A DNA stretch of 64,000 bases from Candidatus Undinarchaeota archaeon. GTDB lineage: Archaea; SpSt-1190; JASMDC01. The notes under the pieces are model-generated. The model made no database searches, had not been told where the DNA came from, and worked only from the letters and a program-made list of their open reading frames with translations. How positions within the stretch are numbered: position 1 is the stretch's first letter; each line of letters begins with the position of its first letter. Where the stretch lies: contig CAZFHY010000001.1 of the NCBI GenBank assembly GCA_964519305.1, forward strand, positions 186,132 to 250,131, read 5' to 3'. This document shows positions 6,485-31,815 of this stretch, one piece after another. The translations under genes were made by a program, and so were the position numbers.

Positions 6485-7168
6485 ATGCTCCACGTCGTCA
6501 TCGCCGAGACCGAGCTCGAACTGGTCCCGGAGCAGTTGCACAAGGACACCGTTATCACTGCATCTGCGGAGCGTGCGGGGATCGAGCCACGCCGCTTGCT
6601 CCTTGAATCGACGCATCACCACCGCGCAACGTGGAAGCTCGACGATGGTCGACGGCGGGGGCGACCCGACATCCTCCACTTCTGCCTCGTCACCGCCCTC
6701 CACTCGGTGGCCAACTCCAAGGACCATCTCAGGCTTCATGTGCATACACGTCACGACAAAGTGATCGCTATCAACCGCTATACACGCATCCCAAAGGACT
6801 TCAATAGGTTCGCAGGGTTAATGCGTCAGCTCCTGATCGAGGGCGCCGTTCCTCCACAACAGCCCCTGTTGGAACTGGCGGATATGACCCTTGATGAACT
6901 ATTGGAACGGGAGAAACCCTCCAAGGTATTCATCCTGTCCAAGAAAGGCAAGCGGATGTCGCCCCGGGTTCTGGGACGTAAGCTGGCCAAGGAAAAGCGA
7001 CCAATAGTGGTCATCGGTGGTTTCCCTCATGGGGAGTTCGATCGCAAGCACCGGGACGAGGAGAGTGTCATCAGTATCTACGACTCCGGCCTCCCGGCAT
7101 GGACGGTGCTCTCCACAGTCATCCATGCTTACGAGGATGCAAAAGGCCTGTTCTCGGGGAAGGGATGA
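6485..7168 (+). CDS. nep1: 16S rRNA N1-pseudouridine methyltransferase Nep1 (SPOUT)
   Basis: ELELVP, RGRPDILH, R.P..FNRF.GLM.QLL and IGGFPHGEF motifs. Confidence 0.94.
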   Translation: MLHVVIAETELELVPEQLHKDTVITASAERAGIEPRRLLLESTHHHRATWKLDDGRRRGRPDILHFCLVTALHSVANSKDHLRLHVHTRHDKVIAINRYTRIPKDFNRFAGLMRQLLIEGAVPPQQPLLELADMTLDELLEREKPSKVFILSKKGKRMSPRVLGRKLAKEKRPIVVIGGFPHGEFDRKHRDEESVISIYDSGLPAWTVLSTVIHAYEDAKGLFSGKG

Positions 7169-16310: not shown

Positions 16311-17321
16311 GTGCCCATCCGCTCATCGGCACTCTCGGAGGGTGCCACGATAGGCGGCTGGCGCGACCTGTTGGACAAGCTCACCGGGTTCGAGCCCGAT
16401 GACGAGTCCATCAAGGTGCTCTATCACGACAACATCGACAACTCCATGAACAACTCGCTCGGCCGTTATTTCGATGAAGCGGTCAACTCCATGGACGGTG
16501 TACGCGGCGCACATGCGAAGTTCCCCAAGCATTATGGCGGCAGTGGTCACGTCAAGCAGAAGATCCGTAAGGAGCTTGGCGGCGATCCCGACGTTATCAT
16601 CAACTTCATGGCCGGGCCTCCCTCGGGCATCCTGCGCGAGTTCGAGGACAACGGCACCCTCGTTCTCAACGATCCGGACATGTACCCGGTCACCGGGAGC
16701 AAGGTGCGAACCCAGCAGCTGCTTGAACAGGCCAATGTACCCGTTGCCGAGACGGTAATCCCTCATTCTTACGATGATATCCGTGAGTTCTGCGACCGTG
16801 TCGAGGGCCCCTACGTGCTCAAACCGTCCAATGGTTTCGGCGGTAAGGGCGTTCGCAAGGTGGACACCGCTGAGGAGGCTCTCAAACAGGTGAACCTGGG
16901 CACTGACATCGTTCAGGAGGACGTGTTCAAGTACTGGCCGCACCAGAGCTACCGGGATATCCGGGCATATGTGGTGGGCGACCAGTGCATAGGCGCCATG
17001 TACCGCGTCAACGACGACTGGATCACTAACATCCATAACGGTGGCCATGGGGAGAAGGTCCCAGACGATGCGTACCAGAAGGTCGCCGAACTTGCGGTCG
17101 ATGCTGTGAAGGCCATGGGTGACGGCTTGCACTTCTCCGGCGTGGACATCCTGGAGCGGTACGATAAGGACGGCAACGTCGAATACGTCGTGCTGGAACT
17201 GAATTCCGCCCCTGGTGGCTTCTACAACCTCGAGCGCAGCACCGGTCATGGCAGGGACGCTGTGCGCCAGATCGTCGAGTACTCAGTGGAGCTGGAGAAA
17301 GAGCTCCACAGGGAGGGCTGA
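16311..17321 (+). CDS. RimK-family ATP-grasp amide ligase
   Basis: P.VLKP..GFGGKGV, IVQE, RDIRAYVVG, W.TNIHNGG, FSGVDIL and VLELNSAPG. Start uncertain (GTG 16311 or ATA 16350). Confidence 0.92.
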   Translation: MPIRSSALSEGATIGGWRDLLDKLTGFEPDDESIKVLYHDNIDNSMNNSLGRYFDEAVNSMDGVRGAHAKFPKHYGGSGHVKQKIRKELGGDPDVIINFMAGPPSGILREFEDNGTLVLNDPDMYPVTGSKVRTQQLLEQANVPVAETVIPHSYDDIREFCDRVEGPYVLKPSNGFGGKGVRKVDTAEEALKQVNLGTDIVQEDVFKYWPHQSYRDIRAYVVGDQCIGAMYRVNDDWITNIHNGGHGEKVPDDAYQKVAELAVDAVKAMGDGLHFSGVDILERYDKDGNVEYVVLELNSAPGGFYNLERSTGHGRDAVRQIVEYSVELEKELHREG

Positions 17322-17324
17322 ACC

Positions 17325-18605
17325 ATGTCGTGGGGCAAGCTGAACGACGGCCACACCATCGGCATGGAGAAGGAGTTCATTATCGTCGATTCCAGCGGTA
17401 ATCCTGTCGACTGCACATCGATCGAGAACGCGTGCAATGACGACCGCATCAACCATGACTACCCGTCCGCTCTCGGATTCAGTGTATGGGGCATCGAGAT
17501 CAACTCGCACCCCTACGACAACCTCACTGAGCTGAACACCGAGATGAAGGAGATGGTGACGAAGGTCCGTGACGAGGCCACCAGCCGCGGCTATAAGCTC
17601 ATGACCGCGGCACGTCATCCGGACAAGGGCGGATACATGGCCATGCACACACATGTCGGTGCTGCCGACGACCGTGAAGCGCTTTTCGTCACCAAGGCCC
17701 TTAGGGCCCATCTTCCCGAGATCATCGCGCTCGCCTCTAACTCACCGAAGAAGACCACGCTCGGTAAGTGGTGCAAGGACGGTCGCATGTACTCGACCAA
17801 CATGGGCGGTACCCAGTACGGCCGCAGCGTACCCGACGACCCGGTGGTGTACGGTGACGAGGACAGGGCCCATCGCGAGGTGCTGAGCTTCAAACGTATC
17901 CGCTGGGACGGCCGCGGTGTCGTCATCGCGGGCGAGAAGGACTCCGACCGCCTTAAGGGAACCATCGAGGTCCGCTGTCCTGATGCCCAGCTCACGGCCG
18001 AGGAGGACGTGGCCGTGGCCGCGTTCATCTGGGGCATCGCTGAGTACGCCAAGAAGGAGCTGGCCAGCAAGAACTACGACTGGTCCGAGCTCACCGAAAA
18101 AGAGCACGAGCGTGACGACCTGCAGAACCAGCTGGACCAGGTCTACCATGCCGGGATTTTCTCGGCCATGGGTCGTGGCATCCGCAAGTTCTTCGGTAAG
18201 GAGACAACGGGCGACCAACAGTACGCCCAGCTCAGTTCACAACTTGACACAGCGGACGCTTGGCTGGCCGAGAACCGTCCGTCCTACGATATCGCCATGA
18301 CCAATAAGGAGCTCATGGATAACATCGACAAGGTGGGCTACAGCGGTATGGAGGGCACGATCGCCTATTCAAGCGGCGGTCAGGATATGAAGGTGGCCGC
18401 CAAGGACTCGATAAAGGAGACATACGAGAAGATCAAGCCGGTCCTCGACGACCTCAAGATACCAGACGATGTGCGCGAGCGTCTCGAAGCACGGGTGTAC
18501 GGCGGCCGCTCCGGTGCCGACGTCCAGATCGATGCCGTGAACGACGGCGAGGACCTGACTTCCTATGTCATCGAGAAATCAACCAATATGGAGTATCTGG
18601 TGTAA
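17325..18605 (+). CDS. glutamate-cysteine ligase family 2 (YbdK-like) carboxylate-amine ligase, divergent copy 0
   Basis: TIGMEKE, GIEINS, MHTHVG, ALASNSP, GTIEVRCPD and SGAD. Has an extra helical-hairpin insertion. Confidence 0.85.
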   Translation: MSWGKLNDGHTIGMEKEFIIVDSSGNPVDCTSIENACNDDRINHDYPSALGFSVWGIEINSHPYDNLTELNTEMKEMVTKVRDEATSRGYKLMTAARHPDKGGYMAMHTHVGAADDREALFVTKALRAHLPEIIALASNSPKKTTLGKWCKDGRMYSTNMGGTQYGRSVPDDPVVYGDEDRAHREVLSFKRIRWDGRGVVIAGEKDSDRLKGTIEVRCPDAQLTAEEDVAVAAFIWGIAEYAKKELASKNYDWSELTEKEHERDDLQNQLDQVYHAGIFSAMGRGIRKFFGKETTGDQQYAQLSSQLDTADAWLAENRPSYDIAMTNKELMDNIDKVGYSGMEGTIAYSSGGQDMKVAAKDSIKETYEKIKPVLDDLKIPDDVRERLEARVYGGRSGADVQIDAVNDGEDLTSYVIEKSTNMEYLV

Positions 18606-18607
18606 TC

Positions 18608-19867
18608 ATGATCGAGTACAGTGATACGGACAGGGACATCCTCGACTGCCACGTCCACATGGGGTGGGACGCCCCGGACGGTGTCGAGACACTGACCGCA
18701 CCGTACACATGGGAAAACATGGCCGAGGTCCAGGCCAAGCTCGGGTACGACCACGCCAAGGAGAAACAGGCACAGCGGAGCCTGACACCCGAGGAGATCA
18801 TCGAGGCCATGGACGCGGGCTACGGGCCGCAGAGCCAGTGCAACGTGTTCCCGTTCAACGAGGGCGACCGGAACGTGCCGGACCCCAACGGAGTCCTCAT
18901 CCCATTCCACTATGCCAACGACCGAGTGCTGTGGGCGGCCAACGAGTACGAAGGTCGGTTCCATCCGTTCTGCCGTGTGGATCCCAACGGGACGGGCTCG
19001 GAAGGACCCTACGCCGCGGTGTACGAGGTAGTACGGTGCCGTCTGGAAGGCGCCGAGGGGCTCAAGCTCCATCCCAGGGCGCAGAAGTTCGCCGCCGACT
19101 CGGACGAGGCCGCTACCGTGGCACGCGTGGCGGGTGCCCTTGGTATGCCAGTTCTCCTCCACTCTCAGGCCAGACCCGACCTAATCGAGCAGGATAATCC
19201 GGAGGACGTCATCATGTGCGAGCCCTACCGCATGGGCAAGCTCGCAGAGAAGGCGCCGGACACCACGATCATCATCGGTCACTCCGGTTGCGGTGGGAGC
19301 TCCCGTGTCGTTTCGGCGAGGGCACGCACCGCTGCAGTTACCCAGGCGGCTGATGTCGCAGCATCTCATGAGAACGTATACCTCGACCTTTCTATCACCA
19401 TGCCGTTCTCTCTGGAGGATAATGAGGTGGAGAAGCCCGAGGACGTCGGGAAGTACACCCTCGGCCTCACTGACATAATCCTTTCACGGCACCAGGAGTA
19501 CGAGGGGCGCATACTCTTCGGCTCCGACCTGCCCTTCGCCAAGATGAGCTCGTCCCTGCGCACATACGAACGCGTGGCCGGTAGATACGGCATCGCCGGT
19601 GACGAGGACGGTGCGATCAAGGCGGGCACAATGGAGTCGCTGTTCGCGCCGATGGAGGATACCCCGGTCCAGGAGATCGCAGGCATCGTCCGTGACTACA
19701 TCGAACAGCACGAGCCGTTCTGGAACCGCAGGGCCAAGCAGCTGTCCCGCGAGCTAGAGCAGGTCGCCACGGTCGAGGAGCTCGAAGGCGCGCTCTACAA
19801 CTATGTTCAGGACACGGGAAAGGCCGAGGACCTACCGGGCGGGCAGCCGGTACCGGTCAAGGCATAG
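18608..19867 (+). CDS. metal-dependent TIM-barrel amidohydrolase (Amidohydro_2)
   Basis: DCHVH, PFCRVDP, GLKLHP, PVLLHS, IIGHSG, NVYLD.S and LFGSDLPF. Confidence 0.9.
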   Translation: MIEYSDTDRDILDCHVHMGWDAPDGVETLTAPYTWENMAEVQAKLGYDHAKEKQAQRSLTPEEIIEAMDAGYGPQSQCNVFPFNEGDRNVPDPNGVLIPFHYANDRVLWAANEYEGRFHPFCRVDPNGTGSEGPYAAVYEVVRCRLEGAEGLKLHPRAQKFAADSDEAATVARVAGALGMPVLLHSQARPDLIEQDNPEDVIMCEPYRMGKLAEKAPDTTIIIGHSGCGGSSRVVSARARTAAVTQAADVAASHENVYLDLSITMPFSLEDNEVEKPEDVGKYTLGLTDIILSRHQEYEGRILFGSDLPFAKMSSSLRTYERVAGRYGIAGDEDGAIKAGTMESLFAPMEDTPVQEIAGIVRDYIEQHEPFWNRRAKQLSRELEQVATVEELEGALYNYVQDTGKAEDLPGGQPVPVKA

Positions 19868-19873
19868 CGTCCC

Positions 19874-20371
19874 TTACGGGATCGACGGCTCGCACCATTT
19901 GTACGAGTCAACGCACTTGAGCATGTTTCTATCCGTGCCCGGAGGACAACCACCATCGGGTTCGAGTAGGTAGCCGCCCTGCTCCATGGACCCCACCGAG
20001 CTCTCGCAGCAGCTGGAGCCCTTACATTGGTCCCTGAGCTGCTGGTAGTAGGTTGCCGGGGAGGCTGACACTGCGCTTCCTGCTGGTGACGAGGGACCTG
20101 GTTCACACCATTTGTACGAATCCTCGCACCTGAGCATGTTCCCGTTCGTGCCCACAGGACACCCGTTGGACGGAGATAGCGTTGCATTGGTACTGTACAT
20201 CGAGTCAACGGATGCCAGGCAGCAGCTAGAGCCCTTGCACTGATCCGCAAGCTGCTTGTAGTAGGGGGGAAGGTTCGTTGTGGAGGCTCCTCCGGAAGGT
20301 CCGGAGGAGAGGCACCCCGCCACTAGGGCGAGCAGGAGCATCAGGCCTACGATGCGGTGCTGTGTGACCAT
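19874..20371 (-). CDS. Cys-rich lipoprotein with two tandem 6-Cys domains
   Basis: Lipobox LVAGC. Two copies of YY.QL.DQCKGSSCC.SSV.SM...GCP.GT..NML.C.DSYKWCEP. Confidence 0.8.
   Translation of the reverse strand: MVTQHRIVGLMLLLALVAGCLSSGPSGGASTTNLPPYYKQLADQCKGSSCCLASVDSMYSTNATLSPSNGCPVGTNGNMLRCEDSYKWCEPGPSSPAGSAVSASPATYYQQLRDQCKGSSCCESSVGSMEQGGYLLEPDGGCPPGTDRNMLKCVDSYKWCEPSIP
19886..20263 (-). repeat. internal duplication, period 213 bp
   Basis: Repeat starts at 20263 and 20050 on the minus strand. CACCATTTGTACGA is shared at DNA level. Confidence 0.85.
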
Positions 20372-20418
20372 CGAAATCGTAGGACAAGGCAACAATAAAA
20401 GGCTTAGGGCAGGGCAGC

Positions 20419-21240
20419 TCAGTGGAAGATACTGGAGAGGAAACCGGCTACGGAGGAGCCACTCTTATCAGGATCAGGCTGCTGCATGTCCAGGTCGTAC
20501 AGGTCAAGCTTCATGTCGTTGGGGAGGTCGCGTTCTTGCCTGACGGACACCTCGTCGAACTCGTCGCTGCCGGTCCGCCGGTTCACCTCGACGCCACCAT
20601 ACCAGTCCTCATCGCCATCACAGCGGACGTGATATCCGCCGGACCGGACCACTGCAGCGCTCTCGATGAAGTGCTTCCCGTTAGCTACCAAGAACTGCAG
20701 GTCGAGGTCCTCGACATCCTTACCCGACAGTTCGTAGCACGAGTGGTCATAGCAGATCTCCAGCCCCATAGAGAGCCCCCGGTGCTCGAGCACACCTCGA
20801 CTCTTCTCAGCTTCATATTGAAGACCATGCTGCTCGGCGACCCAGTTCTCCCCGTTCGCGGGATTCTGCTTGTCGTAGGAGTAGATGATCTCGCCCTTGT
20901 GGAACACGGGGAGGGTGTTGTGGAGCTTGCCTGCCTCCTGCCAGACGTAGGTGCCCGGGAGAAGGAGGGTATCAGGGTGTTCCTCAGAGATCTCGCGCAT
21001 CTGCTCGAGTCGCTCGTCCTTCTCATCGCGCGTGAGGGGCACGTTGGGGAAGAAAGCGTACTCGGAACCCACGAGGACGTCCGGATTCGCCTCCAAGGCC
21101 GCAGATATCGTGTCCTGGTACGCGTCCATGAAGGACTCGTTACGTGGGCTATAACGATCGAACGGTACGTCACCCTGGATGAGACCGACAGTGATGTGGT
21201 CAGGTCGATCATCACCCGTCACATCTTCAAGGGTGTACAC
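20419..21240 (-). CDS. carbon-nitrogen hydrolase (nitrilase superfamily), copy 1
   Basis: Glu-Lys-Cys triad: GSEY, YDKQ, GLEICYDH. Confidence 0.87.
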   Translation of the reverse strand: MYTLEDVTGDDRPDHITVGLIQGDVPFDRYSPRNESFMDAYQDTISAALEANPDVLVGSEYAFFPNVPLTRDEKDERLEQMREISEEHPDTLLLPGTYVWQEAGKLHNTLPVFHKGEIIYSYDKQNPANGENWVAEQHGLQYEAEKSRGVLEHRGLSMGLEICYDHSCYELSGKDVEDLDLQFLVANGKHFIESAAVVRSGGYHVRCDGDEDWYGGVEVNRRTGSDEFDEVSVRQERDLPNDMKLDLYDLDMQQPDPDKSGSSVAGFLSSIFH

Positions 21241-21338
21241 GGTCCGTCACGTCCTCCGGCCAAAAGGCCATAAAGGTCGATTGATATACTTTCCCTTGCG
21301 GACCATCGGCCCACGTTCTCAAGTGGACTGGGTGAGTA

Positions 21339-22106
21339 TCACGCTATGTCCAGTTCGTAGAGGTCGAGCTTCATGTCATGGGGGAGCTCGCTCACGCGTC
21401 CGGGCTCGACGATATCGTACAAGTAAGAACCGACACACTTGCGCACCTCGACACCATGGTAGCAGGAGCTGTCGCTGCCATCGACTCGAAGATGGTATCC
21501 TCCCTCCCTGACCATCGTGGCCGTATCGATGAATTCCTTTCCGTTGGCAACCAGCACCTGAAGGTCGAGGTCCCTGACACCCTTGTCCCGCAGCGTATGT
21601 GCTGAGTGGTCGTAGCAGATCTCCATCCCCATGGAAAGACCTTGGTAGTCGATGACACCTTCGCTCTTCTCGGCGGTGTAAACCAAATTGTGGTCGCTCT
21701 CCATCCAGCGCTCGGCGTTGGCCGGGTTCTGCTTCTCATAGGTGAACACCAGCTCGCCCTTGTGGAACACGGGGAGGGTATTGTGCAGCTTGCCCTCCTC
21801 CTTCCAAATGTAAGTGCCGGGCAAGAGTAGAGTGTCCGGATGCTCCGCTGATAGCTGGCGCATCACATCGAACCGCTCATCACGCTCCTCGCGGGTGAGT
21901 GGCTGACGGGGGAAGAAGACGTACTCGGCGCCTACGAGAATGTCGGGCTCGGTCTCCAGGGCCGTTCCGATGGCGTCCTGATAGTTGTCCATGACGGTCT
22001 CGTCCCGGGCCCCACTGCTGGAGAACGGTACGTCAGCGTCGAGGAGGCCGACCGTTAGATGGTCGGGCCGTTCATCAGCGGACTCGAGCTCGTACATCGA
22101 TCGCAA
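21339..22106 (-). CDS. carbon-nitrogen hydrolase (nitrilase superfamily), copy 2
   Basis: GAEY, YEKQ, GMEICYDH. Close paralog of copy 1 (shared HPDTLLLPGTY.W...GKLHNTLPVFHKGE). Confidence 0.87.
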   Translation of the reverse strand: MRSMYELESADERPDHLTVGLLDADVPFSSSGARDETVMDNYQDAIGTALETEPDILVGAEYVFFPRQPLTREERDERFDVMRQLSAEHPDTLLLPGTYIWKEEGKLHNTLPVFHKGELVFTYEKQNPANAERWMESDHNLVYTAEKSEGVIDYQGLSMGMEICYDHSAHTLRDKGVRDLDLQVLVANGKEFIDTATMVREGGYHLRVDGSDSSCYHGVEVRKCVGSYLYDIVEPGRVSELPHDMKLDLYELDIA

Positions 22107-22180
22107 CGCTCCTAATCCACGACACCTGAGGCCCGCCTAATAAACATTCCCTTGTGGGATCGCGAGGGTGGAAAAAGCAC

Positions 22181-23251
22181 CTACTCGCGGTGCGCGATGC
22201 GTTCGTACAGCTCCGGCCCGAACAGGTCGTCCTTCTTACCGAAGAACCGCTTCACCCGCGGCCACCAACCGTCGAGTCCCTTTTCCTGCTCCACTTCGCG
22301 GTAGATGTCGAGCACATCGTCCGCCCCGGAGCGACGTCGCTCCACCTTGTCCTCTAGGGTCGCGAGGACGTCCGCGGGGCAGTCGTAGCGTTCGAGGTAT
22401 GGCTTGATCGTCTCGAGGGTCTCTGTCGCCAACTGGTACGCGGGGACCTCTTCTCCGTTCACCTTGAACACGGCCGCCATGCCCTTCTTGATAGCCTTGT
22501 TCCTGTTCTTCACCAGCTCTTTCTGCAGTACCTTGTAAGAGCTGCTGACATGGTACAGGATGCCCGCCTCGGGAGGCTCCTCGACAAGGGCGTGGTACTC
22601 CTCCTTGGCCTTCTCGGCGATACCGAATATGTAGGCGGCGATGGCCGCGTCCTCCACGGCCGTCCCCTGCGAGTCCATGCACCGCGCCTCGATGGTTCCC
22701 GACCTCTTCTGGATCACCGAGCTGCTGGAGGTGCTGTAGTACTGCGTAATCTCGTGGCCGTACCAGCTCTTGATCAAGCGTACATCCTTGATCCTCCCGC
22801 TCCGGACCGGGGAGTTGGCCGAGAGGGCCAGGATGTCGGGAACGTGGCGCTGGAGCGCGTAGAACACGTAGCGGGCCTCCTCCTCATCGGCATATCCGAC
22901 ATGGACATGGAGCCCTGCCTTGTCACGTGACTGTCCCGGGCGTATACCCATACCCAAGGCGTAGCAGTTGTTGTCGTCGGCCTCCTCCTGGGCTATGCGG
23001 TAGGCGGTTGTTATGTCGTCGGTGAGCTGTCGCAGGTCCGTGCAGGGACGGGTGACCACCTCTAAGGGCCCCGAACCGTCCTCGTAGCACTTGGGACCCA
23101 CGGAGACGTCGTAGGCGTCCATTTCCGCTTGCATTCGGTCGACCACGGTGCGCTCTAGGGTTGACTGGATGGAAGTGCCACCGTACCTGTCGACCACATA
23201 GAACTCCTTCTCGAGACCCACGGAGTGGCCCTCATTGAGAACCTCGGTCAT
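22181..23251 (-). CDS. GCS2/YbdK-like carboxylate-amine ligase, copy A
   Basis: NEGHSVGLEKEFY, GPLEV, AGLHVHVG, ALSANSP, TIEARCMD, RSGADD. Start MTEVLNEG chosen by alignment to the paralogs. Confidence 0.87.
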   Translation of the reverse strand: MTEVLNEGHSVGLEKEFYVVDRYGGTSIQSTLERTVVDRMQAEMDAYDVSVGPKCYEDGSGPLEVVTRPCTDLRQLTDDITTAYRIAQEEADDNNCYALGMGIRPGQSRDKAGLHVHVGYADEEEARYVFYALQRHVPDILALSANSPVRSGRIKDVRLIKSWYGHEITQYYSTSSSSVIQKRSGTIEARCMDSQGTAVEDAAIAAYIFGIAEKAKEEYHALVEEPPEAGILYHVSSSYKVLQKELVKNRNKAIKKGMAAVFKVNGEEVPAYQLATETLETIKPYLERYDCPADVLATLEDKVERRRSGADDVLDIYREVEQEKGLDGWWPRVKRFFGKKDDLFGPELYERIAHRE

Positions 23252-23255
23252 TCTC

Positions 23256-24305
23256 TTAGGACCCCCCGTCATCCCGGTGTGCGAGCCGTTCGATGAGCCG
23301 TTCCTTCGTTCGCCAGGGATGGAAGAACGCGCTAACGCGCTCCTTGAACCCTTTTGGGGCCATCTCCTGGTAGATGTCGAGGATGTCGTCCGCTCCGGAC
23401 CGCTTGTTCTCTACCTTGTCCTCCAGAGCAGAAAGGACCTCCTCGGGGCACTGGTACTGCTCGATGTAAGGCCGGACCTCTGCGAGTGTATCGGTAACTA
23501 TCTGGTGTGCAGGGACTTCTCCGTCCCCTACAGTGAACGTAGCTTTCATCCCGTCCTCAATCGCGTTGTAGAAGTTATCCTCGCTCTCGACCGGTACTTC
23601 ATGCACGGAGCAACCGTTGACAAAGTCCTCCTTGGCCTTCTCGGCGATACCGAGGATGTAGGCGGCGATCGCCGCGTCCTCCACTGCGCTCGCCTGGCTG
23701 TCCATGAACCGCAGTTCCAGTGTGTTCTCGCGAACGTAGATGACCGAGTGGCGTGATGTGTCTTCAAAGGGATCGAACTGTTGACCGAACCTGACCATGA
23801 AGAGGCCGTCCAGACCGCGTGCGTCCATGCGCATGTCCTTGACCTTACCGTCGTACGAGGGAGAGTTGGTGGACAAAGCCATGATGTCCGGGACGTGCGC
23901 CTGTAACGCCTGGAACACGTAGCGGGCCTCTTCCTTGTCGGCGAAACCGATGTGCACGTGCAGCCCTGCCATGTCGTATGGTTTGCCTGGCCGGGTACCC
24001 ATCCCAAGAGCGTACCAGCCGTGAGCTTCTGCTTCCTCTTGGGCTATCGTGTAGGCGGTCGTGACATCGTCGGTGAGCTGTTGCAGGTCCGTGCAGGGGC
24101 GGGTGGTCACCTCAACAGGACCTGTGGTATCGTGATATGCTTTCGGGCCGACGACCGAGTCGTAGGCGTCCATCTCCTCGCGCATGCGCTCCTCTACAGC
24201 AGGAACTATCTCGTATCCCCGACTACTGCTACCGTGGCCATTGACCACGTAGAACTCCTTCTCCACGCCCACGGTGTGGCCGTCGTTGAAGGTGGGAGCG
24301 AGCAT
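23256..24305 (-). CDS. GCS2/YbdK-like carboxylate-amine ligase, copy B
   Basis: GHTVGVEKEFY, GPVEV, AGLHVHIG, ALSTNSP, TLELRFMD. Confidence 0.87.
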   Translation of the reverse strand: MLAPTFNDGHTVGVEKEFYVVNGHGSSSRGYEIVPAVEERMREEMDAYDSVVGPKAYHDTTGPVEVTTRPCTDLQQLTDDVTTAYTIAQEEAEAHGWYALGMGTRPGKPYDMAGLHVHIGFADKEEARYVFQALQAHVPDIMALSTNSPSYDGKVKDMRMDARGLDGLFMVRFGQQFDPFEDTSRHSVIYVRENTLELRFMDSQASAVEDAAIAAYILGIAEKAKEDFVNGCSVHEVPVESEDNFYNAIEDGMKATFTVGDGEVPAHQIVTDTLAEVRPYIEQYQCPEEVLSALEDKVENKRSGADDILDIYQEMAPKGFKERVSAFFHPWRTKERLIERLAHRDDGGS

Positions 24306-24308
24306 CCT

Positions 24309-25373
24309 TCAGGCACCCCCGCTGTTAGCCTGCTCGCGTTCCTGCGCCTTCCACTCACGCTGGTGGGCAAGGTCGCTGTAGAGCGCCTTCTTCCTGCTCC
24401 AGAATGTGAAAGGAGTAGCGAGCGTCTGCAGTAAGCCCTGTGGTCGGTGCTCGGAATAGATATCGAGGATGTCGTCGGCTCCCGAGCGTCCGCGTACGAT
24501 CTTGTCCGCTAGTATACCGATTATCTCCTCCGGACAGTCGTACTTCTGAAGGTAGGGGAGGATCGACACGAAGGTGTCCTGAGCGACGTCCTGCACCGGC
24601 CGCGTTTCATCACTGTATGTGAACTTCGCTGCCATACCGTCCTTGATCGCCTGTTCATGGTTCTTGATCTCGTCGCCGAACCGGTCAGAAACGCCTTCGC
24701 CGTTCGCGTAATCGACCTTGGCCTTCTCGGCGATGCCTAGGATATAGGCCGCGATCGCTGCATCCTCTTCTGCTGTTCCCTGTGAGTCCATGCAGCGTAC
24801 TTCCAGTGTATTGCCGCGTTTCTTGATGACCGAGTCGTTGCTGGTCGTGCTGAAGGGGGAATAACGTTGGCCATACGAACGGTTGGCTGCTCGCATGTCC
24901 TTGATGGAACCGTCCTTGTTGGGCGAGTTCGCCGATAGTGCCATGATCTCGGGTACGTGATGCTTGAGAACAGTGAATACGTACTCCGCCTCTGCCTCGT
25001 CACTGTAGCCCACATGGACGTGGAGCCCGGCCTTGTCGTTAGGTATCCCAGGGCGGGTCCCCATCCCAAGAGCGTACTTACCACGAGCCTCCACTACTTC
25101 TTGCGCGATGTCGTAGGCAGTCGTGATATCGTTCGTGAGCTGGTTGAGGTCCGTGCAGGGGCGGGTAACTACTTCCATAGGACCGGATGCATCGAGATAA
25201 GCTTTCGGACCTACATCGTCATCGTATGCACCCATCTCCTCACGCATACGGATCCCTATACTGGATGCGATATCCATCTCATCCCGAAGGTGGAGATAGC
25301 CGTTGCGTCCGTGGTTCACAATGTAGAACTCCTTCTCGAGCCCTACCGAGTGTCCCTCGTTGACGATATCCAT
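24309..25373 (-). CDS. GCS2/YbdK-like carboxylate-amine ligase, copy C
   Basis: GHSVGLEKEFY, GPMEV, AGLHVHVG, ALSANSP, TLEVRCMD. Confidence 0.87.
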   Translation of the reverse strand: MDIVNEGHSVGLEKEFYIVNHGRNGYLHLRDEMDIASSIGIRMREEMGAYDDDVGPKAYLDASGPMEVVTRPCTDLNQLTNDITTAYDIAQEVVEARGKYALGMGTRPGIPNDKAGLHVHVGYSDEAEAEYVFTVLKHHVPEIMALSANSPNKDGSIKDMRAANRSYGQRYSPFSTTSNDSVIKKRGNTLEVRCMDSQGTAEEDAAIAAYILGIAEKAKVDYANGEGVSDRFGDEIKNHEQAIKDGMAAKFTYSDETRPVQDVAQDTFVSILPYLQKYDCPEEIIGILADKIVRGRSGADDILDIYSEHRPQGLLQTLATPFTFWSRKKALYSDLAHQREWKAQEREQANSGGA

Positions 25374-25404
25374 GTTGCTACTGAAAAGTGGTGATAGCTC
25401 GGCC

Positions 25405-25414
25405 TATATTTAAA
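25405..25414 (-). promoter_or_regulatory. TATA box upstream of copy C (likely drives C-B-A)
   Basis: TTTAAATATA on the minus strand, ~32 nt upstream of the ATG. Confidence 0.6.
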
Positions 25415-25482
25415 CGTTGCGTTTACGGTGTGCGGTTTTGACCCACAATCAGTGGAACGGTCCGGAACGGTCGTTCGTGAGG

Positions 25483-26595
25483 TCAGGCCGCTGCTAGCAT
25501 AGGGCGCATCGGGATGAAATCCTCGGGCTCTTCCTTGAACTCGTCGCGGTAGGCAAGGTGCTTTATGAGACGCTCCTTCTGCCCTTCCTTTCGCCTGAAC
25601 GGAGCGATGAGCCTCGAAAGGAATCCTTGGGGGAGTTCCTCCTTGTAGATGTCAAGGATGTCATCAGCACCCGAACGCCTGCCGTCGATCTTTGATTCGA
25701 GCACGTCGAGCACATTCTTGGGACACTTGTACTGCTTAAGGTAGGGCATGATCTCCTCGAAGGTATCCCCCACTATCTGGTAGGCCTTGACCTTCTCGCC
25801 GTCGACCTTGAAGTTAGCCTTCATGCCATTTCTGAGGGCGCGGTCGAAGTTCCGCTCCTCCTGCTTCCCCACATCAGCGATGGGGACGCCATTGGCATAA
25901 TCCTCCTTGGCCTTCTCAGCGATGCCGAATATGTAGGCTCCGATGGCCGCATCCTCTTCACCCGATCCCTGCGAGTCCATGCACCGCACCTCGATGGTAT
26001 GCTCGCGCACGTATATCACCGAGTGGCGACTGGTGTTCCAGTAGGGGGAGAAGTCATGTCCCCAGCGTGACTGGAGCCCGATCAAGTTCTCCTCGATCCA
26101 TCCGCCGACGCCGCCGGTCTGGCGCATGTCCTTGACGGTGCCGTAATCGTTCGGCGAGTTGGCGGAGAGAGCCATTATGTCCGGTACGTGCTTTTGCAGG
26201 GCGTGGAACACGTACTGCGCCTCGCCCTCGTTGGCGAATCCCACGTGGACGTGGAGCCCGGCGCAGTCGTTCGACTTCCCGGGTCGCGTCCCCATCCCCA
26301 GAGCATAGAGGCCGCGCGTATTGGCTTCCTCCTGGGCGATGTCGTAGGAGGTGGTGATATCCTTAGTGAGCTGGCGTAGGTCCTTGCATGGACGAGTAGT
26401 GATCTCTAGGGGTCCGGAGGCGTCCTCGTAGCATTTGGGGCCCCAGTGATCGTTATAGGCTCCCAGCTCGTCCTTCATGCGCCCGCCGATGCTGGCCACC
26501 ATGCTACTGTAGCTGACGTCCTCGTTATTCCCATCGACGACGTAGAACTCCTTCTCAAGGCCAACACTATGGCCATTGTTGAGGATATCTTCCAT
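25483..26595 (-). CDS. GCS2/YbdK-like carboxylate-amine ligase, copy D
   Basis: GHSVGLEKEFY, GPLEI, AGLHVHVG, ALSANSP, TIEVRCMD. Confidence 0.87.
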   Translation of the reverse strand: MEDILNNGHSVGLEKEFYVVDGNNEDVSYSSMVASIGGRMKDELGAYNDHWGPKCYEDASGPLEITTRPCKDLRQLTKDITTSYDIAQEEANTRGLYALGMGTRPGKSNDCAGLHVHVGFANEGEAQYVFHALQKHVPDIMALSANSPNDYGTVKDMRQTGGVGGWIEENLIGLQSRWGHDFSPYWNTSRHSVIYVREHTIEVRCMDSQGSGEEDAAIGAYIFGIAEKAKEDYANGVPIADVGKQEERNFDRALRNGMKANFKVDGEKVKAYQIVGDTFEEIMPYLKQYKCPKNVLDVLESKIDGRRSGADDILDIYKEELPQGFLSRLIAPFRRKEGQKERLIKHLAYRDEFKEEPEDFIPMRPMLAAA

Positions 26596-26643
26596 GTACC
26601 CAGTTCCCCTGTTGTTACCCGCTAGTGGTTGCAGGTCAGGTCC

Positions 26644-26651
26644 TATATAAA
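26644..26651 (-). promoter_or_regulatory. TATA box upstream of copy D
   Basis: TTTATATA on the minus strand, in the intergenic gap. Confidence 0.55.
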
Positions 26652-26680
26652 CATTACGAAAAAAGGGCAGCGGACAGCGT

Positions 26681-27799
26681 TCACACTGGAGATGTCACTA
26701 TGGAAGCAACGGGATCATCCTGTCGTTCCTGCTCTTCCTCGAACCGGTCACGGTACGCAAGGTGCCTGATGACTCTTTCCCTCTTGGACGGGAGGAGGAA
26801 CGGCCTTGTTAGGCAGCCCCAGATGCCGCCGACATGCTCCTCACGGTAAATGTCCATTATGTCATCTGCACCACACCGTTCAGTGACCACACGCTCCTTG
26901 AGTATATCGTTGATCTCCTTGGGGCAGTTATACTGTTCAAGATAGGGTTGTATCTCCTTGAGTGTATTAGCGACGACCTGGGAGACATGTACTTTCTTTC
27001 CATCTACCCTGAATCTCGCTCCCATACCCTTGATGACAGCGTGCTTGAAGTTACGTTTTTCTTCTTTACCGATACCGACCTGCTCGATGCCGTTGTTGTA
27101 GTCCGCTTTCGCCTTCTCCGCGATACCGAAGATGTACGCTGCGACGGCCGCGTCCTCTTCTGCGGTCCCTTGTGTGTCCATACACCGCACTTCGATCGTC
27201 TTCGTACCTTCCCGTTTGTAGATGACCGATTTTCTGCCTGTGCTCTCGAAGGGGGAGAAGAAGTGACCGTAGAAGAGAGTCTCTCCTGCTCCCAGGACAT
27301 CGAACAAATGCTTGGGTGGATTCCCGTACTGTCGCATGCACTTGACCATCCCGTCACGGGAGGGTGAGTTCGCCGATAGTGCGATAATCTCCGGCACATG
27401 CTTCTGCAGATCGTGGAACACGTAATCGGCCTCGCTGTCAGTGGCATATCCGACGTGCACGTGGAGCCCTGCCGCATCGTCGTCAGCTTCAGGTCGACTA
27501 CCCATGCCGAGGGCATAGAGATTGCTCTTCTCCGCAATCTCCTTGGTGAACCTGTAGGTCTTCGTGATATCATCGGTTAGCTGTCGGAGGTCAGAGCAGG
27601 GACGGGTGGTTATCTCCAATGGGCCTGATGCATCTACATAGCACTTGGCACCATTCTCGCTGCACAATCCGATCTCATCCCGTATGAAGTCGGAGACGGG
27701 GGATACGAAGTACATCTGGAGTTGTGGGCTGTTGGATCCGTTCACTACGTAGAACTCTTTTTCCAGCCCTATTGAATGACCCTCGTTGATGATTGGCAT
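26681..27799 (-). CDS. GCS2/YbdK-like carboxylate-amine ligase, copy E
   Basis: GHSIGLEKEFY, GPLEI, AGLHVHVG, ALSANSP, TIEVRCMD. Confidence 0.87.
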   Translation of the reverse strand: MPIINEGHSIGLEKEFYVVNGSNSPQLQMYFVSPVSDFIRDEIGLCSENGAKCYVDASGPLEITTRPCSDLRQLTDDITKTYRFTKEIAEKSNLYALGMGSRPEADDDAAGLHVHVGYATDSEADYVFHDLQKHVPEIIALSANSPSRDGMVKCMRQYGNPPKHLFDVLGAGETLFYGHFFSPFESTGRKSVIYKREGTKTIEVRCMDTQGTAEEDAAVAAYIFGIAEKAKADYNNGIEQVGIGKEEKRNFKHAVIKGMGARFRVDGKKVHVSQVVANTLKEIQPYLEQYNCPKEINDILKERVVTERCGADDIMDIYREEHVGGIWGCLTRPFLLPSKRERVIRHLAYRDRFEEEQERQDDPVASIVTSPV

Positions 27800-27832
27800 G
27801 TTGCTACTGTGCGGTGACGGCGCATGATGTCG

Positions 27833-27840
27833 TATTTATA
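27833..27840 (-). promoter_or_regulatory. TATA box upstream of copy E
   Basis: GAAATG-TATAAATA on the minus strand. Confidence 0.6.
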
Positions 27841-27915
27841 CATTTCTCCTAAATGTCGTGGAAGATAAGCCCCTAAGAGGATACGAAAACGCAAGAAGGG
27901 GCCATTATTTGCGGA

Positions 27916-28983
27916 TTATGCCGGTCGTGGATCCGCGTCCCCGGTACATGCTTCAGGCTCTTCCTCTATCTTGTCCCTGTGGGCGAGCCGGTCATAGAGC
28001 TCAGCATGGCCCCGGTGCATCGTGAAGAAGTCCTTAATTCCAGTCCATACGGTGCTATAGCCGCACTCCTTGTAGATGTCCAATATGTCGTCTGCCCCAG
28101 AGCGGTGTTCCTTTACCTTCCCCTCGAGGACGTCCATGACCTCATCGGGGCAGTCATATCGATCCAGGTAGGGGCGGACCTCGGCGAAGGTGTCCTCGAC
28201 AACGCTGTATGCAGGGACCTTCTCACCATCTATCTTGAATGTGGCCTCCATGCCCTTCTTGACAGCGTGCTTGAAGTTCTTGGGCCCTTCCTTCCCCACG
28301 AGATCCTGTCCGACACCGTTAGCGTGGTCCTCCTTGGCCTTCTCAGCGATACCGAATATGTACGCGGCGATGGCCACGTCCTCCTCCGGTGTCCCCTGGG
28401 AGTCCATGCAACGCACCTCCAGAGTGTCGCTCCGCTTGTAGATGACCGAGGTGCGGCCCGTATCCCCGTACGCGGAGAACTTGTGACCATAGTACCCACC
28501 CTTGGCGCGCGTGTCCTTGATACCTCCGAACCGCGATGGTGAATTGGCCGAGAGGGCCATGATGTCAGGTACGTGCTTTTGGAGTTCGTTGAACACGTAC
28601 TCGGCCTCGGCCTCGTCCTTGAAGCCTACGTGAACGTGTAGCCCGGCCTGGTCGCTGGGTCTACCGGGGCGTGAGCCCATCCCCAGAGCGTATAGACCAC
28701 GGTCGTCGGCCTCCTCTTGGGCGATGTTGTAGGCCGTGGTAATATCATCAGAGAGCTGCCTCAGGTCAGAACAAGGCCGGGTGACCACTTCTAAGGGTCC
28801 CGTGCAGTCCACATAGCACTTCGGGCCTCGTACATCGTTATAGGCGCCCAGCGCCTCAGTCATGCGGGGGATAACGCTATCCCTCACAGTGGACTGGTAG
28901 TAGGTGTTGTTCTCAGCGTCGACTACGTAGAACTCCTTCTCGAGCCCGACGGAGTGCCCCTCGTTAAGAATCACAGTAGACAT
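27916..28983 (-). CDS. GCS2/YbdK-like carboxylate-amine ligase, copy F
   Basis: GHSVGLEKEFY, GPLEV, AGLHVHVG, ALSANSP, TLEVRCMD. Confidence 0.87.
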   Translation of the reverse strand: MSTVILNEGHSVGLEKEFYVVDAENNTYYQSTVRDSVIPRMTEALGAYNDVRGPKCYVDCTGPLEVVTRPCSDLRQLSDDITTAYNIAQEEADDRGLYALGMGSRPGRPSDQAGLHVHVGFKDEAEAEYVFNELQKHVPDIMALSANSPSRFGGIKDTRAKGGYYGHKFSAYGDTGRTSVIYKRSDTLEVRCMDSQGTPEEDVAIAAYIFGIAEKAKEDHANGVGQDLVGKEGPKNFKHAVKKGMEATFKIDGEKVPAYSVVEDTFAEVRPYLDRYDCPDEVMDVLEGKVKEHRSGADDILDIYKECGYSTVWTGIKDFFTMHRGHAELYDRLAHRDKIEEEPEACTGDADPRPA

Positions 28984-29045: not shown

Positions 29046-30149
29046 TCACCCGAGCGATATGGTGAACGCCTGCTGGAAGCCCATCATGTCCTCTCGTCCA
29101 TCGGCGAGAATGTGCGGTCGGCTCCCCGCGACCTTGCCCCGGAGCATGAGTTGTACGGTGGCGTTCTCCTCGACCGGTGGTGTGAGCATGCTATAGATGA
29201 GCTTGTTTCGCAAGGTGATCACCTTGTTCTCGCCGCCCACGGTCATGTTCACCTTGTCCGTGTCCAGTTCAGCGAACGATGGCTGATACACAGCAGGGGT
29301 CTCTAGGGCGAGCTCTTTTCCCAAGGCTTCAAGTTGTCCTGCGAGCTTCGCTGTGAGGTTCTGGTCCAGGATATGTTCGAGGTCGAGGAAGAGCTGGAGG
29401 TGAAGGACCTCATCCTTCTCAGCTGGCGCCTCAGTGACGTTGGCAACACCCCTCACACCGCGGACACGTTCAATGATTTCCTGGCGCGTAAGGGTTGTGT
29501 TCTCACCCTGAGTGCCGAAGAACACAAGGCTCGGGAGACGACCTTTGATAGTCCCGCTCACGAAATAGGCTTCGGCCGGCTCAGGTGGTGTATCATCGCC
29601 ACCAGTATCGAGGAACTTGCTAAGGTCGATCTCATAGTCCTGAGGACGCGAGATCTGCTGACTGGTCGCATATACGGCTCGTCCCTCCTCGTCCTCAACG
29701 AGCTTGAACAGGTACTCCTGACCGTCCTGGAGGTTCAAGGAGACGAGCTCCTGCTCTACTTCCAGGGTAAGGGTGGCTGTCGTGTTCCCATCTGTATAGG
29801 TGATCGTGTTACCATCCTCGCTCTTGATGACCGAAGGTGCCGATGCGAATGAGAACCCGAATACATCTTCGAGGATAGTGCGTAGCTGCGGTGAGTGTTC
29901 GCCGGGCACCTTGTCCCAGTCGAAGAGGAAACGGGCGCCTTCGGGCGCTCCATCCCGACCTCCACCGCCGCTATCGAACGTTGAAAAGTAATTGAATCCC
30001 AAGGCCACGGCAGAGAGGATCATTATCCCTCCCACGAAGAACGCGAACATCTTGTCCGATGTCGTATGGCTCCGTTTGGGATCATCATGCTCCTCTACCA
30101 TCTCCAGGGCGATCTCTTCGGACCGCTTGATCTTACGCTTGCGTACCAT
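29046..30149 (-). CDS. hypothetical single-pass membrane protein
   Basis: Start MVRKRK at 30149; the longer ORF runs deep into pheT. TM segment MFAFFVGGIMILSAVALGF, then an extracellular region. Confidence 0.75.
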   Translation of the reverse strand: MVRKRKIKRSEEIALEMVEEHDDPKRSHTTSDKMFAFFVGGIMILSAVALGFNYFSTFDSGGGGRDGAPEGARFLFDWDKVPGEHSPQLRTILEDVFGFSFASAPSVIKSEDGNTITYTDGNTTATLTLEVEQELVSLNLQDGQEYLFKLVEDEEGRAVYATSQQISRPQDYEIDLSKFLDTGGDDTPPEPAEAYFVSGTIKGRLPSLVFFGTQGENTTLTRQEIIERVRGVRGVANVTEAPAEKDEVLHLQLFLDLEHILDQNLTAKLAGQLEALGKELALETPAVYQPSFAELDTDKVNMTVGGENKVITLRNKLIYSMLTPPVEENATVQLMLRGKVAGSRPHILADGREDMMGFQQAFTISLG

Positions 30150-31815
30150 TGTAGAGCACCTCCAGGTCGAACTCAAGGGCTGCGACGGGGACCTCCAGAG
30201 CGAAGGACTCGAGCACCGCCGGATGGACCTCACCGAACACTCCAGCTGGAGCACCGTCCACGAGCACCCGGGCCGCTCGACCGGAGATGAAAGCTCCCTC
30301 ATCGACGGCTTCGAAGGCCACCGAACGTCCAAGGGTCCGTCCCAGGGATTCCACGACCGCTTTCAGTGCAGCGAAAGTGGCGTCCGTTCCGGCCATAGCT
30401 CCGCCGATACGTCGAACGTTCCGCGTCCTAGTGTCCGTTTTATCATCTAGCACCACGATATCCCCCACCTCGAATAGGCGCTGGGGGTAACCATGGCGCT
30501 TGTTCCGCTCCAGCGTTTCCATAAGGGAGGGCAGAAGGCGGTCGCGGACCACCGTGAACTCGCTGGAGTTAGGATTGGCTATTGTGGCGACCGGCCGTTG
30601 TTCCTCGCCCATCCTAGTAAAGAGCCGGTCAGGATTGGTAAGTACGAAGGTGATGACCTCGCTGAACCCATGGCCTACCAGAGCATCGCGGACCACATCA
30701 CCAGCATCACGGACCGGCAAGGGCGCCCCCACAGTGGCAACGGCAGGGAGGGACGGTTCGAAGTTATCGTAACCGTGGCCGATGGCCACGTCCTCCGCCA
30801 GGTCCATGGGATGCATCACATCGGTACGGAAGGCGGGGATGGCCACCTCAAGACGGCCCTTCCCTTTCTTCTTGACGCCCAGACGCATGCGTTCCAGGCG
30901 TTCGGCCACTTCTTTGTCGGATAGTGAGATGCCCAGCAGCTGAGTGATGTACGCCACATCGACCTCCATGGTGGACGGCGTCACCTCCGGCGTGACCATG
31001 ATGGCGTCCGTATAGCGCACCTCTACGCTCCCGACCTCGGCACCCCTGTCAGTGAGCAGGGCACAGAATATGTTGAGCACCTGACAGATGGTCTTGAGGT
31101 CAGTGCCGGTGACGTCGAAGAACAGGTTCTTGGTCCCATCGGACACGCGGGTCTCCTCACTATTGATGATGGGCGGCATGGATAGCACCTGACCGTTTGC
31201 GTCCTCCAGTATGGGGAACCGGGGCAGCTCCTCGAGCGTGAACGCATAGTCACGACCCTTGGGGTGTTTGATGAGAATCTCCCGACCGCTCATACTGCCA
31301 TACTCCTCTTCGCCCTCAAGAGAGAGGGGGACGAACTCGATCATTCCCGGCTCAAGTGCGACGTAGCGGATAGGGCCCTTGATGGTGTCCAGGTCGTAGA
31401 TACCGATGGACGCCTTACGCCGCTTCCGGCAGTGCGTGGCGTGCAGCTTTTCCTGTATCTGCATCACTGAGCGGATGAAGGGATCGTTGAACTTGACGTT
31501 GCGAGCGATACCGCACACGATGAATGGACGGATGTCCTTGGTGGACGGGTCCACTTCCACGACCAGGTCCGATGCCTTGAGCGGAGTGGCTGGCAATCCA
31601 GTCTCGATGCCTAGTATACCCCTGAGGTTCCGGGCAACACCCTCCACCGAGAGCATGTCGGGCCGGTTGGGGAACACCTCGACCTCGATCTCATCCCCCT
31701 CCACTCCTTCCACGGGCACGCCCATGGCCGCGAGGATGGCTGATAGTTCGTCGATGGGAAGCTTCTTACCGATTAGCTTGAACAGGTCAGGAAGGTCGAA
31801 GGTCAGCGTTGCCAT
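30133..31815 (-). CDS. pheT: phenylalanine--tRNA ligase beta subunit
   Basis: PNRPDMLSVEGVAR, QEKLH, LSMPPIINS, R.D.MHP.D..EDVAI..GY and FGEVHP. Confidence 0.97.
   Translation of the reverse strand: MATLTFDLPDLFKLIGKKLPIDELSAILAAMGVPVEGVEGDEIEVEVFPNRPDMLSVEGVARNLRGILGIETGLPATPLKASDLVVEVDPSTKDIRPFIVCGIARNVKFNDPFIRSVMQIQEKLHATHCRKRRKASIGIYDLDTIKGPIRYVALEPGMIEFVPLSLEGEEEYGSMSGREILIKHPKGRDYAFTLEELPRFPILEDANGQVLSMPPIINSEETRVSDGTKNLFFDVTGTDLKTICQVLNIFCALLTDRGAEVGSVEVRYTDAIMVTPEVTPSTMEVDVAYITQLLGISLSDKEVAERLERMRLGVKKKGKGRLEVAIPAFRTDVMHPMDLAEDVAIGHGYDNFEPSLPAVATVGAPLPVRDAGDVVRDALVGHGFSEVITFVLTNPDRLFTRMGEEQRPVATIANPNSSEFTVVRDRLLPSLMETLERNKRHGYPQRLFEVGDIVVLDDKTDTRTRNVRRIGGAMAGTDATFAALKAVVESLGRTLGRSVAFEAVDEGAFISGRAARVLVDGAPAGVFGEVHPAVLESFALEVPVAALEFDLEVLYNGTQA

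Follow-up and report, generated by a model that had tools for sequence, protein, structure and literature searches.

Six tandem ligases of the GCS2 family in a Candidatus Undinarchaeota archaeon carry a short amphipathic insert in the loop preceding the last helix of their fold, and we tentatively propose that this insert, hereafter the tag, serves for weak and reversible anchoring in the plane of the membrane, as known from MinD. The array lies in a stretch of 64,000 nucleotides (contig CAZFHY010000001.1, positions 186,132 to 250,131; the window), to which coordinates refer unless another contig or locus is named. Ligases A to F (ligA to ligF) are accompanied in the locus by a distant GCS2 copy (lig0), a CN-hydrolase-like protein (nit1) and a RimK-like ATP-grasp ligase, in which a first-pass annotation, made from the letters alone, had seen the same MinD-type helix. 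In ligases A-F the insert is one element inherited from a common ancestor. The cationic likeness to MinD seems to be confined to ligA, lig0 and ligB, the other segments sharing with them the general aromatic amphipathic pattern only.

All nine segments quoted in the first-pass annotation were found in the sequence, at the places it had given. On the minus strand the tags are KGLDGWWPRVKRFFGKK in ligA (residues 331-347, 22232-22282), KGFKERVSAFFHPW in ligB (residues 318-331, 23313-23354), QGLLQTLATPFTFW in ligC (residues 312-325, 24399-24440), QGFLSRLIAPFRRK in ligD (residues 323-336, 25588-25629), GGIWGCLTRPFLLP in ligE (residues 324-337, 26789-26830) and STVWTGIKDFFTMH in ligF (residues 310-323, 28015-28056), and on the same strand nit1 ends with the tail SVAGFLSSIFH (residues 263-273, 20422-20454). 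On the plus strand are the tag of lig0, AGIFSAMGRGIRKFFGK (residues 276-292, 18150-18200), and the N-terminal amphipathic helix of the ATP-grasp ligase, GGWRDLLDKLTGF (residues 15-27, 16353-16391). The start codon of the last protein is uncertain, as the open reading frame (ORF) extends 17 codons further upstream in G001, the single genome of the same genus compared with the source genome (G000, array on contig 1); because the whole protein is 92% identical between the two, identity of the helix in G001 is uninformative.

The inserts of ligases A-F, 14-17 residues long, occupy the same alignment columns, immediately after the helix RSGADD.LDIY. Their pattern can be written G-phi-phi-x-x-phi-x-x-[F/P]-F, followed by basic residues, phi being hydrophobic. 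Position 9 is F in 6/6 sequences, positions 1 and 5 are hydrophobic in 6/6, position 0 is G in 5/6 and F or P stands at position 8. With a step of 100 degrees from residue to residue, positions 1, 2, 5, 8 and 9 fall within an arc of 120 degrees, that is, on one face of a helix, and in B, C, D and E this helix is followed by basic clusters. Identity among the six paralogues is 25% in the tag, 54% over the whole protein and 80% in the preceding helix. Within orthologue groups the tags are kept in a paralogue-specific manner, that of ligB being identical in 4/4 orthologues.

The tag can be separated from the fold that carries it. The AlphaFold2 model of ligA (mean predicted local distance difference test, pLDDT, 83.5) was aligned with YbdK 1r8g_A with a Z score of 31.6 and a root mean square deviation of 2.5 over 303 residues, model residues 9..363 matching chain residues 7..369; with 1tt4_A the Z score was 31.9, and across both structures the deviation was 2.5-2.7 over 303-304 residues (Foldseek E 8e-14). 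As the alignment runs through residue 363, the last helix, ELYERIAHR, is part of the fold. By eye, most of 12 wider GCS2 sequences have a turn of about 3-8 residues between the last two helices, against 20-25 in A-F. The two nearest outside relatives (P0029 and P0030) keep the helix PADRIIDIY and lack the tag motif. In P0021, a seventh ligase paralogue located on the contig of a relative, absent from the source genome and 53% identical to ligF, exactly the tag columns are deleted and the last helix is kept. Since other GCS2 proteins and P0021 are devoid of it, the tag is an add-on outside the fold.

In the ligA model a helix at 316-331 is followed by a short helix at 336-343 and by the helix at 352-360. 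The 10-residue blocks covering 331-350 have pLDDT 69 and then 55, the flanking blocks 84 and 81, and the blocks of the helix 352-360 have 81 and 74. In lig0 the tag is located within an insert of about 100 residues that is absent from A-F, which bears out the earlier remark that this copy carries its segment at a different, and indeed non-homologous, position. The AlphaFold2 model of lig0 places it at the tip of a hairpin formed by helices 253-288 and 295-317, with pLDDT <50 at 286-288. The models thus give no confident packing of the ligA and lig0 tags, a point in favour of the anchor; exposure of the tag helix, for which the annotation had pointed to AlphaFold, is suggested by this low confidence.

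The membrane helix of MinD from Bacillus subtilis is KGMMAKIKSFFGVRS, and a GFP fusion showed its association with the membrane, according to PMC13537761. Aligned with this helix, the core of ligA is GWWPRVKRFFGKK and that of lig0 is GRGIRKFFGKE. When the B. subtilis peptide was scored without gaps (BLOSUM62) against the 1,105,136 windows of a crude ORF set, the tag of ligA ranked 7, lig0 69, ligB 185, ligF 672 and ligD 2279. The best windows of ligC and ligE fell outside their tags, nit1 being outside the scored set. The core common to lig0 and ligA is [VI]-[KR]-[KR]-F-F-G-K, and the expression [LIVM][KR][KR]FFGK has only 2 matches in 2946 crude ORFs, which are ligA and lig0. The MinD-type likeness claimed for all these enzymes by the first-pass annotation thus holds for ligA, lig0 and ligB, and for nit1 and the ATP-grasp ligase, with a net charge of 0, it reduces to general amphipathicity. 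The FFGK cores of lig0 (18177-18194, plus strand) and ligA (22232-22249, minus strand) contain an identical run of 12 bases, TTCTTCGGTAAG. Gene conversion between the two tags was considered and dropped: 17/27 nucleotides are identical over the 9-codon core, and the run is too short to distinguish gene conversion from codon preference. A reading of x-x-[VI]-x-x-F-F as a PCNA-binding PIP-box was also set aside, since a conserved Q is lacking, the segments occur on metabolic enzymes and that of the ligases is internal.

Hydrophobic moments, whose calculation the annotation had proposed as a check, were obtained with the Fauchere-Pliska scale. They were 0.57 in A, 0.57 in B, 0.48 in C, 0.49 in D, 0.36 in E and 0.43 in F, and 0.57, 0.49 and 0.68 in lig0, nit1 and the ATP-grasp ligase, respectively. 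Ranked among all windows of its own protein, the segment stood 4/347 in A, 1/336 in B, 20/341 in C, 37/357 in D, 102/359 in E and 57/342 in F, and 3/410, 7/263 and 4/324 in lig0, nit1 and the ATP-grasp ligase. By this measure the segments of A, B, lig0, nit1 and the ATP-grasp ligase are among the top seven windows of their own proteins, and those of E and F are ordinary. The tagged proteins are strongly acidic (isoelectric point 4.4-5.5), and the tags of A, lig0, D, B and E have net charges of +5, +4, +4, +2 and +1. In ligB, C and D the most basic 20-mer of the protein falls on the tag region, which ties for that place in lig0 and ligE. By the Wimley-White interfacial scale, the 12-mer most favourable to the interface lies in the tag in 5/9 tagged proteins (ligA, C, E, F and nit1), and the segment sums of the nine tags are all below the value of the MinD helix, -0.66. 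These physical properties fit the proposed anchor.

Several observations weigh against a membrane anchor common to these enzymes. The tag of A-F is internal and is followed by the conserved helix ELYxRLAHRD (16-48 further residues in all, including the last helix of the fold), and the MinD tag is terminal. The net charge is 0 in C, F, nit1 and the ATP-grasp helix, and the moments of E and F are ordinary, given the ranks above. Proline occupies position 8 in the tags of C, D and E and position 3 in that of A, and glycines interrupt those of E and F. Tag conservation within orthologue groups (0.64-1.00) is no better than that of the whole protein (0.77-0.89). The best MinD homologue of the genome ends in an acidic helix, IDRLREMWKDLIDEY, and as neither of the two best homologues has a cationic tail, the genome offers no positive control of the cationic type.

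Motif scans of the genome point in the same direction. A 10-mer matrix built from A-F, in which A-F rank 1-6 by construction, places the lig0 segment at 6915 of 1,121,613 windows and misses the ATP-grasp helix, the best ATP-grasp window being elsewhere in the protein; nit1 was outside the scored set, as the greedy ORF caller had taken an antisense ORF over it. Given this failure on lig0 and the ATP-grasp ligase, there is no single shared motif; what remains of the segment announced as shared is the inherited element of A-F and the lig0 core, which resembles that of ligA. Of the 32 matches to G[FILWMV]xxx[LIVM]xx[FP]F in 2946 ORFs, 5 are ligases A-E. The looser phi-x-x-[VIL]-x-x-F-F gave 144, of which 59 were outside a membrane-like context; among these, 7 were within 30 residues of the C-terminus versus 5.8 expected, that is, without genome-wide enrichment.

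It could also be, although we consider it unlikely, that there is no common function across the folds, the element of A-F being lineage-specific and the segments of lig0, nit1 and the ATP-grasp ligase ordinary surface or terminal helices of a kind to be met in any locus of 12 genes. Besides the failure of the A-F matrix on the other enzymes, this explanation is favoured by a generic criterion for lipid-binding helices (a HeliQuest-style discriminant, fixed before looking), by which the locus shows no enrichment: only lig0, ligA and ligB are positive, so that the count is 3/13 against 288/2876 proteins in the genome (binomial P = 0.13). With these figures the claim that three folds independently carry one tag is too strong. 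Baselines over the 2876 proteins, with thresholds set post hoc at the observed values, cut both ways. A 14-mer as amphipathic as those of C-F is held by 2289/2876 proteins, which favours ordinary helices, whereas a C-terminal 11-mer like that of nit1 is found in 37/2876 and an N-terminal 13-mer like that of the ATP-grasp ligase in 25/2876; a cationic 17-mer like that of lig0 and ligA is found in 53/2876. Also counting against this explanation is that the sole two [LIVM][KR][KR]FFGK matches of the genome fall in ligA and lig0, at non-homologous positions.

Helices of this kind were found on other proteins of the same genome. The best non-ligase match of the A-F matrix led to contig 9 (locus L018, 7481-11624), where four tandem arginase-family paralogues have a CN-hydrolase and an amidohydrolase as neighbours. 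The first is without a tail, and the other three terminate in DFWNGVKEFFS, HFIRNVRNFFGRLGKAFAPP and SLWDKVCGLFS; in the third paralogue the tail stands behind a variable linker rich in Pro, Gly and Ser. A fifth arginase-family paralogue (G000:C1:338258-339388, locus L030) ends in RGILRTLGMLD. The tails of these 4/5 paralogues are very like the ligase tags and count in favour of the anchor. In other archaea, relatives of the arginase family either carry amphipathic tails, which vary, or lack a tail. This array repeats the arrangement of tandem paralogues with tails, which argues against mere coincidence, and on the other side of the balance MinD-like tails are also present on a KaiC-like ATPase, a radical-SAM/SPASM protein and two thioredoxins (G000:C22:31913-32677, C5:162476-163594, C4:126301-126681 and C7:52374-52781), for example SARVKGFFGDEE and GLGARIRSFFKG. 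A similar tail also ends a poly-UEV protein.

The main rival reading, in our view somewhat doubtful, takes the tags for arms used in oligomerisation or docking. Each helix would lay its hydrophobic face on a neighbouring subunit or on the enzyme that follows in the pathway, and the paralogue-specific sequences would decide which proteins pair in homo- or hetero-oligomers. The C-terminal tails of arginases and nitrilases contribute to their oligomer interfaces. The differences among paralogues and the constancy within orthologue groups would be consistent with such a role. The genes of ligA, B and C are nearly contiguous, stop and start codons lying within a few bases, an arrangement frequent among genes whose products form a complex. 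According to PMC2588565, GCS1 and GCS2 enzymes act as dimers, and heterodimers have been proposed for paralogous PafA pairs.

Docking arms are less easily reconciled with the distribution of the tails. Orthologues of nit1 keep the tail (SVAGFLSSIFH, SVAGFISRILH) behind a variable linker rich in Pro, Gly and Ser, and it is absent in nit2 and in the 49%-identical P0027. Each of the three families has at least one paralogue without it (P0021 among the ligases, nit2, and the first arginase paralogue), so the tail is dispensable for the fold. The linkers of nit1 and of the third arginase are more typical of a free-swinging anchor, the likeness of ligA and lig0 to a membrane helix requires no protein partner, and the average conservation within orthologues is weak for a specific interface. 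Prediction of a ligA homodimer from two copies scored 0.00 against a mark of 0.42, which speaks neither for nor against binding. When the ligase locus was compared with the arginase locus by BLASTP, only the tails matched, as weak local matches (E 0.29 and 0.86), and no uncharacterised protein common to both loci, a candidate docking partner, was found.

The location of the ligase insert admits another interpretation. The motif R-x-G-A-D is invariant in all 7 ligases, the helix that contains it directly precedes the tag in A-F, and the insert might then be a paralogue-specific lid for the substrate or acceptor, a hydrophobic flap beside R-S-G-A-D-D, perhaps for a lipophilic amine or carboxylate. 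Variation among paralogues with constancy within orthologues would fit this role too. We regard it as quite improbable, given that similar tails stand at the extreme ends of unrelated enzymes, behind linkers, that P0021 is without the insert, and that the C-terminal helices of the superfamily are described as outside the active site in PMC2588565.

Encapsulation peptides, which load enzymes into microcompartments, are likewise short amphipathic helices on unrelated enzymes (PMC12747264, a preprint), and contig 11 of the source genome carries a complete microcompartment locus (L025, 9366-19887). Its shell genes include 5 PF00936 (BMC-domain) matches, with BMC-H and BMC-T among them, and 3 PF03319 EutN/CcmL genes; its enzyme genes encode an aldehyde dehydrogenase, an RnfC-like protein, TIM, RpiB and a DeoC-like protein. 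According to that preprint, such clusters have already been reported in some DPANN and other archaea. That the helices of the ligase locus load its enzymes into this shell seems to us very improbable nonetheless. The ATP-grasp helix WRDLLDKLTGF, with the rhythm phi-x-x-phi-phi-x-x-phi, is the only partial look-alike, and the candidate cargo peptides of contig 11 are N-terminal and aliphatic, with a net charge of -4 to 0 and 0-1 aromatics, whereas the ligase tags have net charges of 0 to +5 and, like the arginase tails, 2-4 aromatics. Moreover, the ligase tags are internal and their locus is on contig 1. No match to the encapsulin family PF04454 was found in the genome (0/2 candidates scored). 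By reading, the shell locus also contains a gene with an archaeal pilin-type N-terminus, KRGVTPVIAIILLL.

The ligases form a narrow family. A search with ligase F in 41 genomes found the array in the source genome and in G001, with weak single matches (E about 1e-9) in 2 others. Of 1270 candidates from a word-based protein search, 21 reached E <= 0.001, and these are the six orthologue groups and one extra paralogue. When 1.84 billion representatives were searched with a profile, 515 proteins had E <= 0.001; among them the representative of the family itself scored 7e-168 and the next ones 3e-39, 1e-32 and 1e-30. From this drop the ligases are seen as an isolated GCS2 branch, nearly confined to one genus. 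The host is a large-genome archaeon in a class otherwise with small genomes.

The enzyme island consists of 13 genes set among housekeeping genes, and its whole gene order is kept in G001. On the plus strand are the RimK-like ATP-grasp ligase (16311..17321, 336 aa; PF08443, 79.1 bits, cut-off 21), lig0 (17325..18605, 426 aa; PF04107, 36.7 bits) and a hydrolase of the Amidohydro_2 family without a tag (18608..19867, 419 aa; PF04909, 57.6 bits), in which no window was positive for the generic lipid-binding helix. On the minus strand follow a small Cys-rich protein (19874..20395, 173 aa), for which no Pfam family was found, nit1 (20419..21240, 273 aa; PF00795, 23.1 bits, narrowly below the cut-off of 23.2), the CN-hydrolase nit2 (21339..22106, 255 aa; PF00795, 25.0 bits, cut-off 23.2), which ends LDIA, and the PF04107 ligases A (22181..23272), B (23256..24305), C (24309..25373), D (25483..26595), E (26681..27799) and F (27916..28983). 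The true start of ligA is probably the ATG at 23249-23251, because its database orthologues open with MTEVLNEGHS; the listed ORF begins 7 codons upstream (23249-23272), and the inner ATG removes its 17-base overlap with ligB.

All 7 ligases match PF04107 with 36.7-48.1 bits (cut-off 21) and have the GhExE signature of the Mg/ATP site, in the form G-[LMV]-E-K-E, with G19, E21 and E23 (ligA numbering) invariant; the signature is taken as defined in PMC2588565. By family and fold they would be ATP-dependent amide-forming enzymes. The signature starts within about 20 residues of each ligase N-terminus, in agreement with the earlier statement that none of the enzymes has a Sec signal, as judged from the sequences. 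The Cys-rich protein has a hydrophobic N-terminus up to LVAGC and then two Cys-rich repeats of about 55 residues each (YY.QL.DQCKGSSCC...SYKWCEP), the G001 orthologue having one repeat, and is probably exported or lipid-anchored. The last gene of the island, on the minus strand (29046..30332), encodes a membrane-anchored protein with one hydrophobic segment, FAFFVGGIMILSAVALGF, for which no Pfam family was found; its G001 orthologue is 85% identical and syntenic with the ligase array. As the listed ORF overlaps the end of pheT, its real start is probably the internal MVRKRK.

The island is flanked on one side by FtsY, SRP54, a TruA-like gene and a GT2 glycosyltransferase, and on the other by pheT and pheS. 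The N-terminus of FtsY, MFASLRSKLDKVVSGF (11219-11266, plus strand), is an amphipathic helix with a moment of 0.57 and a charge of +2, and N-terminal helices of FtsY are known lipid binders. Its segment ...LDKVVSGF is similar to ...LLDKLTGF of the ATP-grasp helix.

If the tags are MinD-type anchors, the insert of A-F would form a short helix, hydrophobic and aromatic on one face and followed by a basic cluster, lig0 would present a separate version of the cationic core, IRKFFGK, on the end of its projecting hairpin, and nit1 an uncharged tail behind a flexible linker. The tags would concentrate these soluble acidic enzymes on the cytoplasmic side of the membrane, where they might assemble an amide-linked product, and trim it, on an acceptor bound to the membrane, at a site beside the exported and membrane proteins of the locus and the flanking GT2. 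What is observed are the sequence features and the low model confidence at the tags; exposure of the helices, membrane binding, acceptor and product are inferred. More speculatively, and with little expectation that it will prove correct, the tags could be the common address label of a ribosome-independent assembly line for amide bonds at the inner face of the membrane. Eight ATP-dependent ligases and trimming hydrolases, with the arginase-family array using the same label, would there produce, on an acceptor bound to the membrane, an envelope component of a peptide-like or polyamine-like kind so far undescribed, by a route distinct from the Mur-type and nonribosomal peptide synthetase ones.

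Binding of the tags to the membrane would mean that paralogous amide-forming and amide-cleaving enzymes, nearly confined to one genus, act at the membrane surface, and would narrow the search for substrates to lipid-linked or envelope-bound acceptors. It would add MinD-type anchors on archaeal metabolic enzymes, including one as an insert within a fold, and the tags would offer an experimental handle through tag deletion, GFP fusions and tryptophan fluorescence. Should they instead be docking arms, the order within a multi-ligase complex would be read from them. Literature searches, aimed at other subjects, gave no paper about this locus, and none of them was directed at tagged GCS2 ligases.

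Among known systems, the closest to the proposed anchor is MinD of B. subtilis. The tags of ligA and lig0 fit G-phi-phi-x-[KR]-[IV]-[KR]-x-F-F-G, with aromatic and basic residues on a soluble protein as in MinD. The difference is that the MinD helix is at the extreme C-terminus and the ligase tags are inserts before a helix of the fold; the tags of C-F, nit1 and the ATP-grasp ligase, furthermore, are without a basic face. Terminal placement behind a flexible linker is seen in the tails of nit1 and of the arginase family, and not in ligases A-F or lig0. In Haloferax volcanii, MinD4 has a C-terminal amphipathic helix of about 7 residues, needed for correct localisation, according to bioRxiv 10.1101/2020.04.03.021790; as described there, the protein is a ParA/MinD ATPase with the helix terminal behind a long extension, whereas the carriers here are metabolic enzymes.

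Short C-terminal extensions beyond the catalytic domain serve in oligomerisation in the arginase and nitrilase superfamilies, the same two folds that are tailed here. The tails of this genome differ from them in standing behind flexible linkers, in being absent from some paralogues and in being alike across folds. Encapsulation peptides share with the tags the nature of short amphipathic helices on unrelated enzymes, as PMC12747264 describes them, in a genome that has a shell locus; the contig 11 candidates are acidic, aliphatic and N-terminal, and the tags are aromatic, neutral to basic and internal or C-terminal.

Within the same carboxylate-amine ligase superfamily, some Pup ligases (Plesiocystis, Rhodopirellula) have a predicted membrane-anchoring insert of four transmembrane segments, according to PMC2588565. 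In those proteins, as described there, the segments come after core strand 4, and here an amphipathic helix is placed in the last loop. With YbdK/GCS2 (1r8g, 1tt4) the ligases share the fold, PF04107 and GhExE, and they differ by the six-fold tandem array with a distant copy and by the insert in the last loop. Amphipathic tags for membranes are an established device; the new aspect here lies in an insertion within the YbdK fold that recurs along a six-fold ligase array, and in tags on a second enzyme array.

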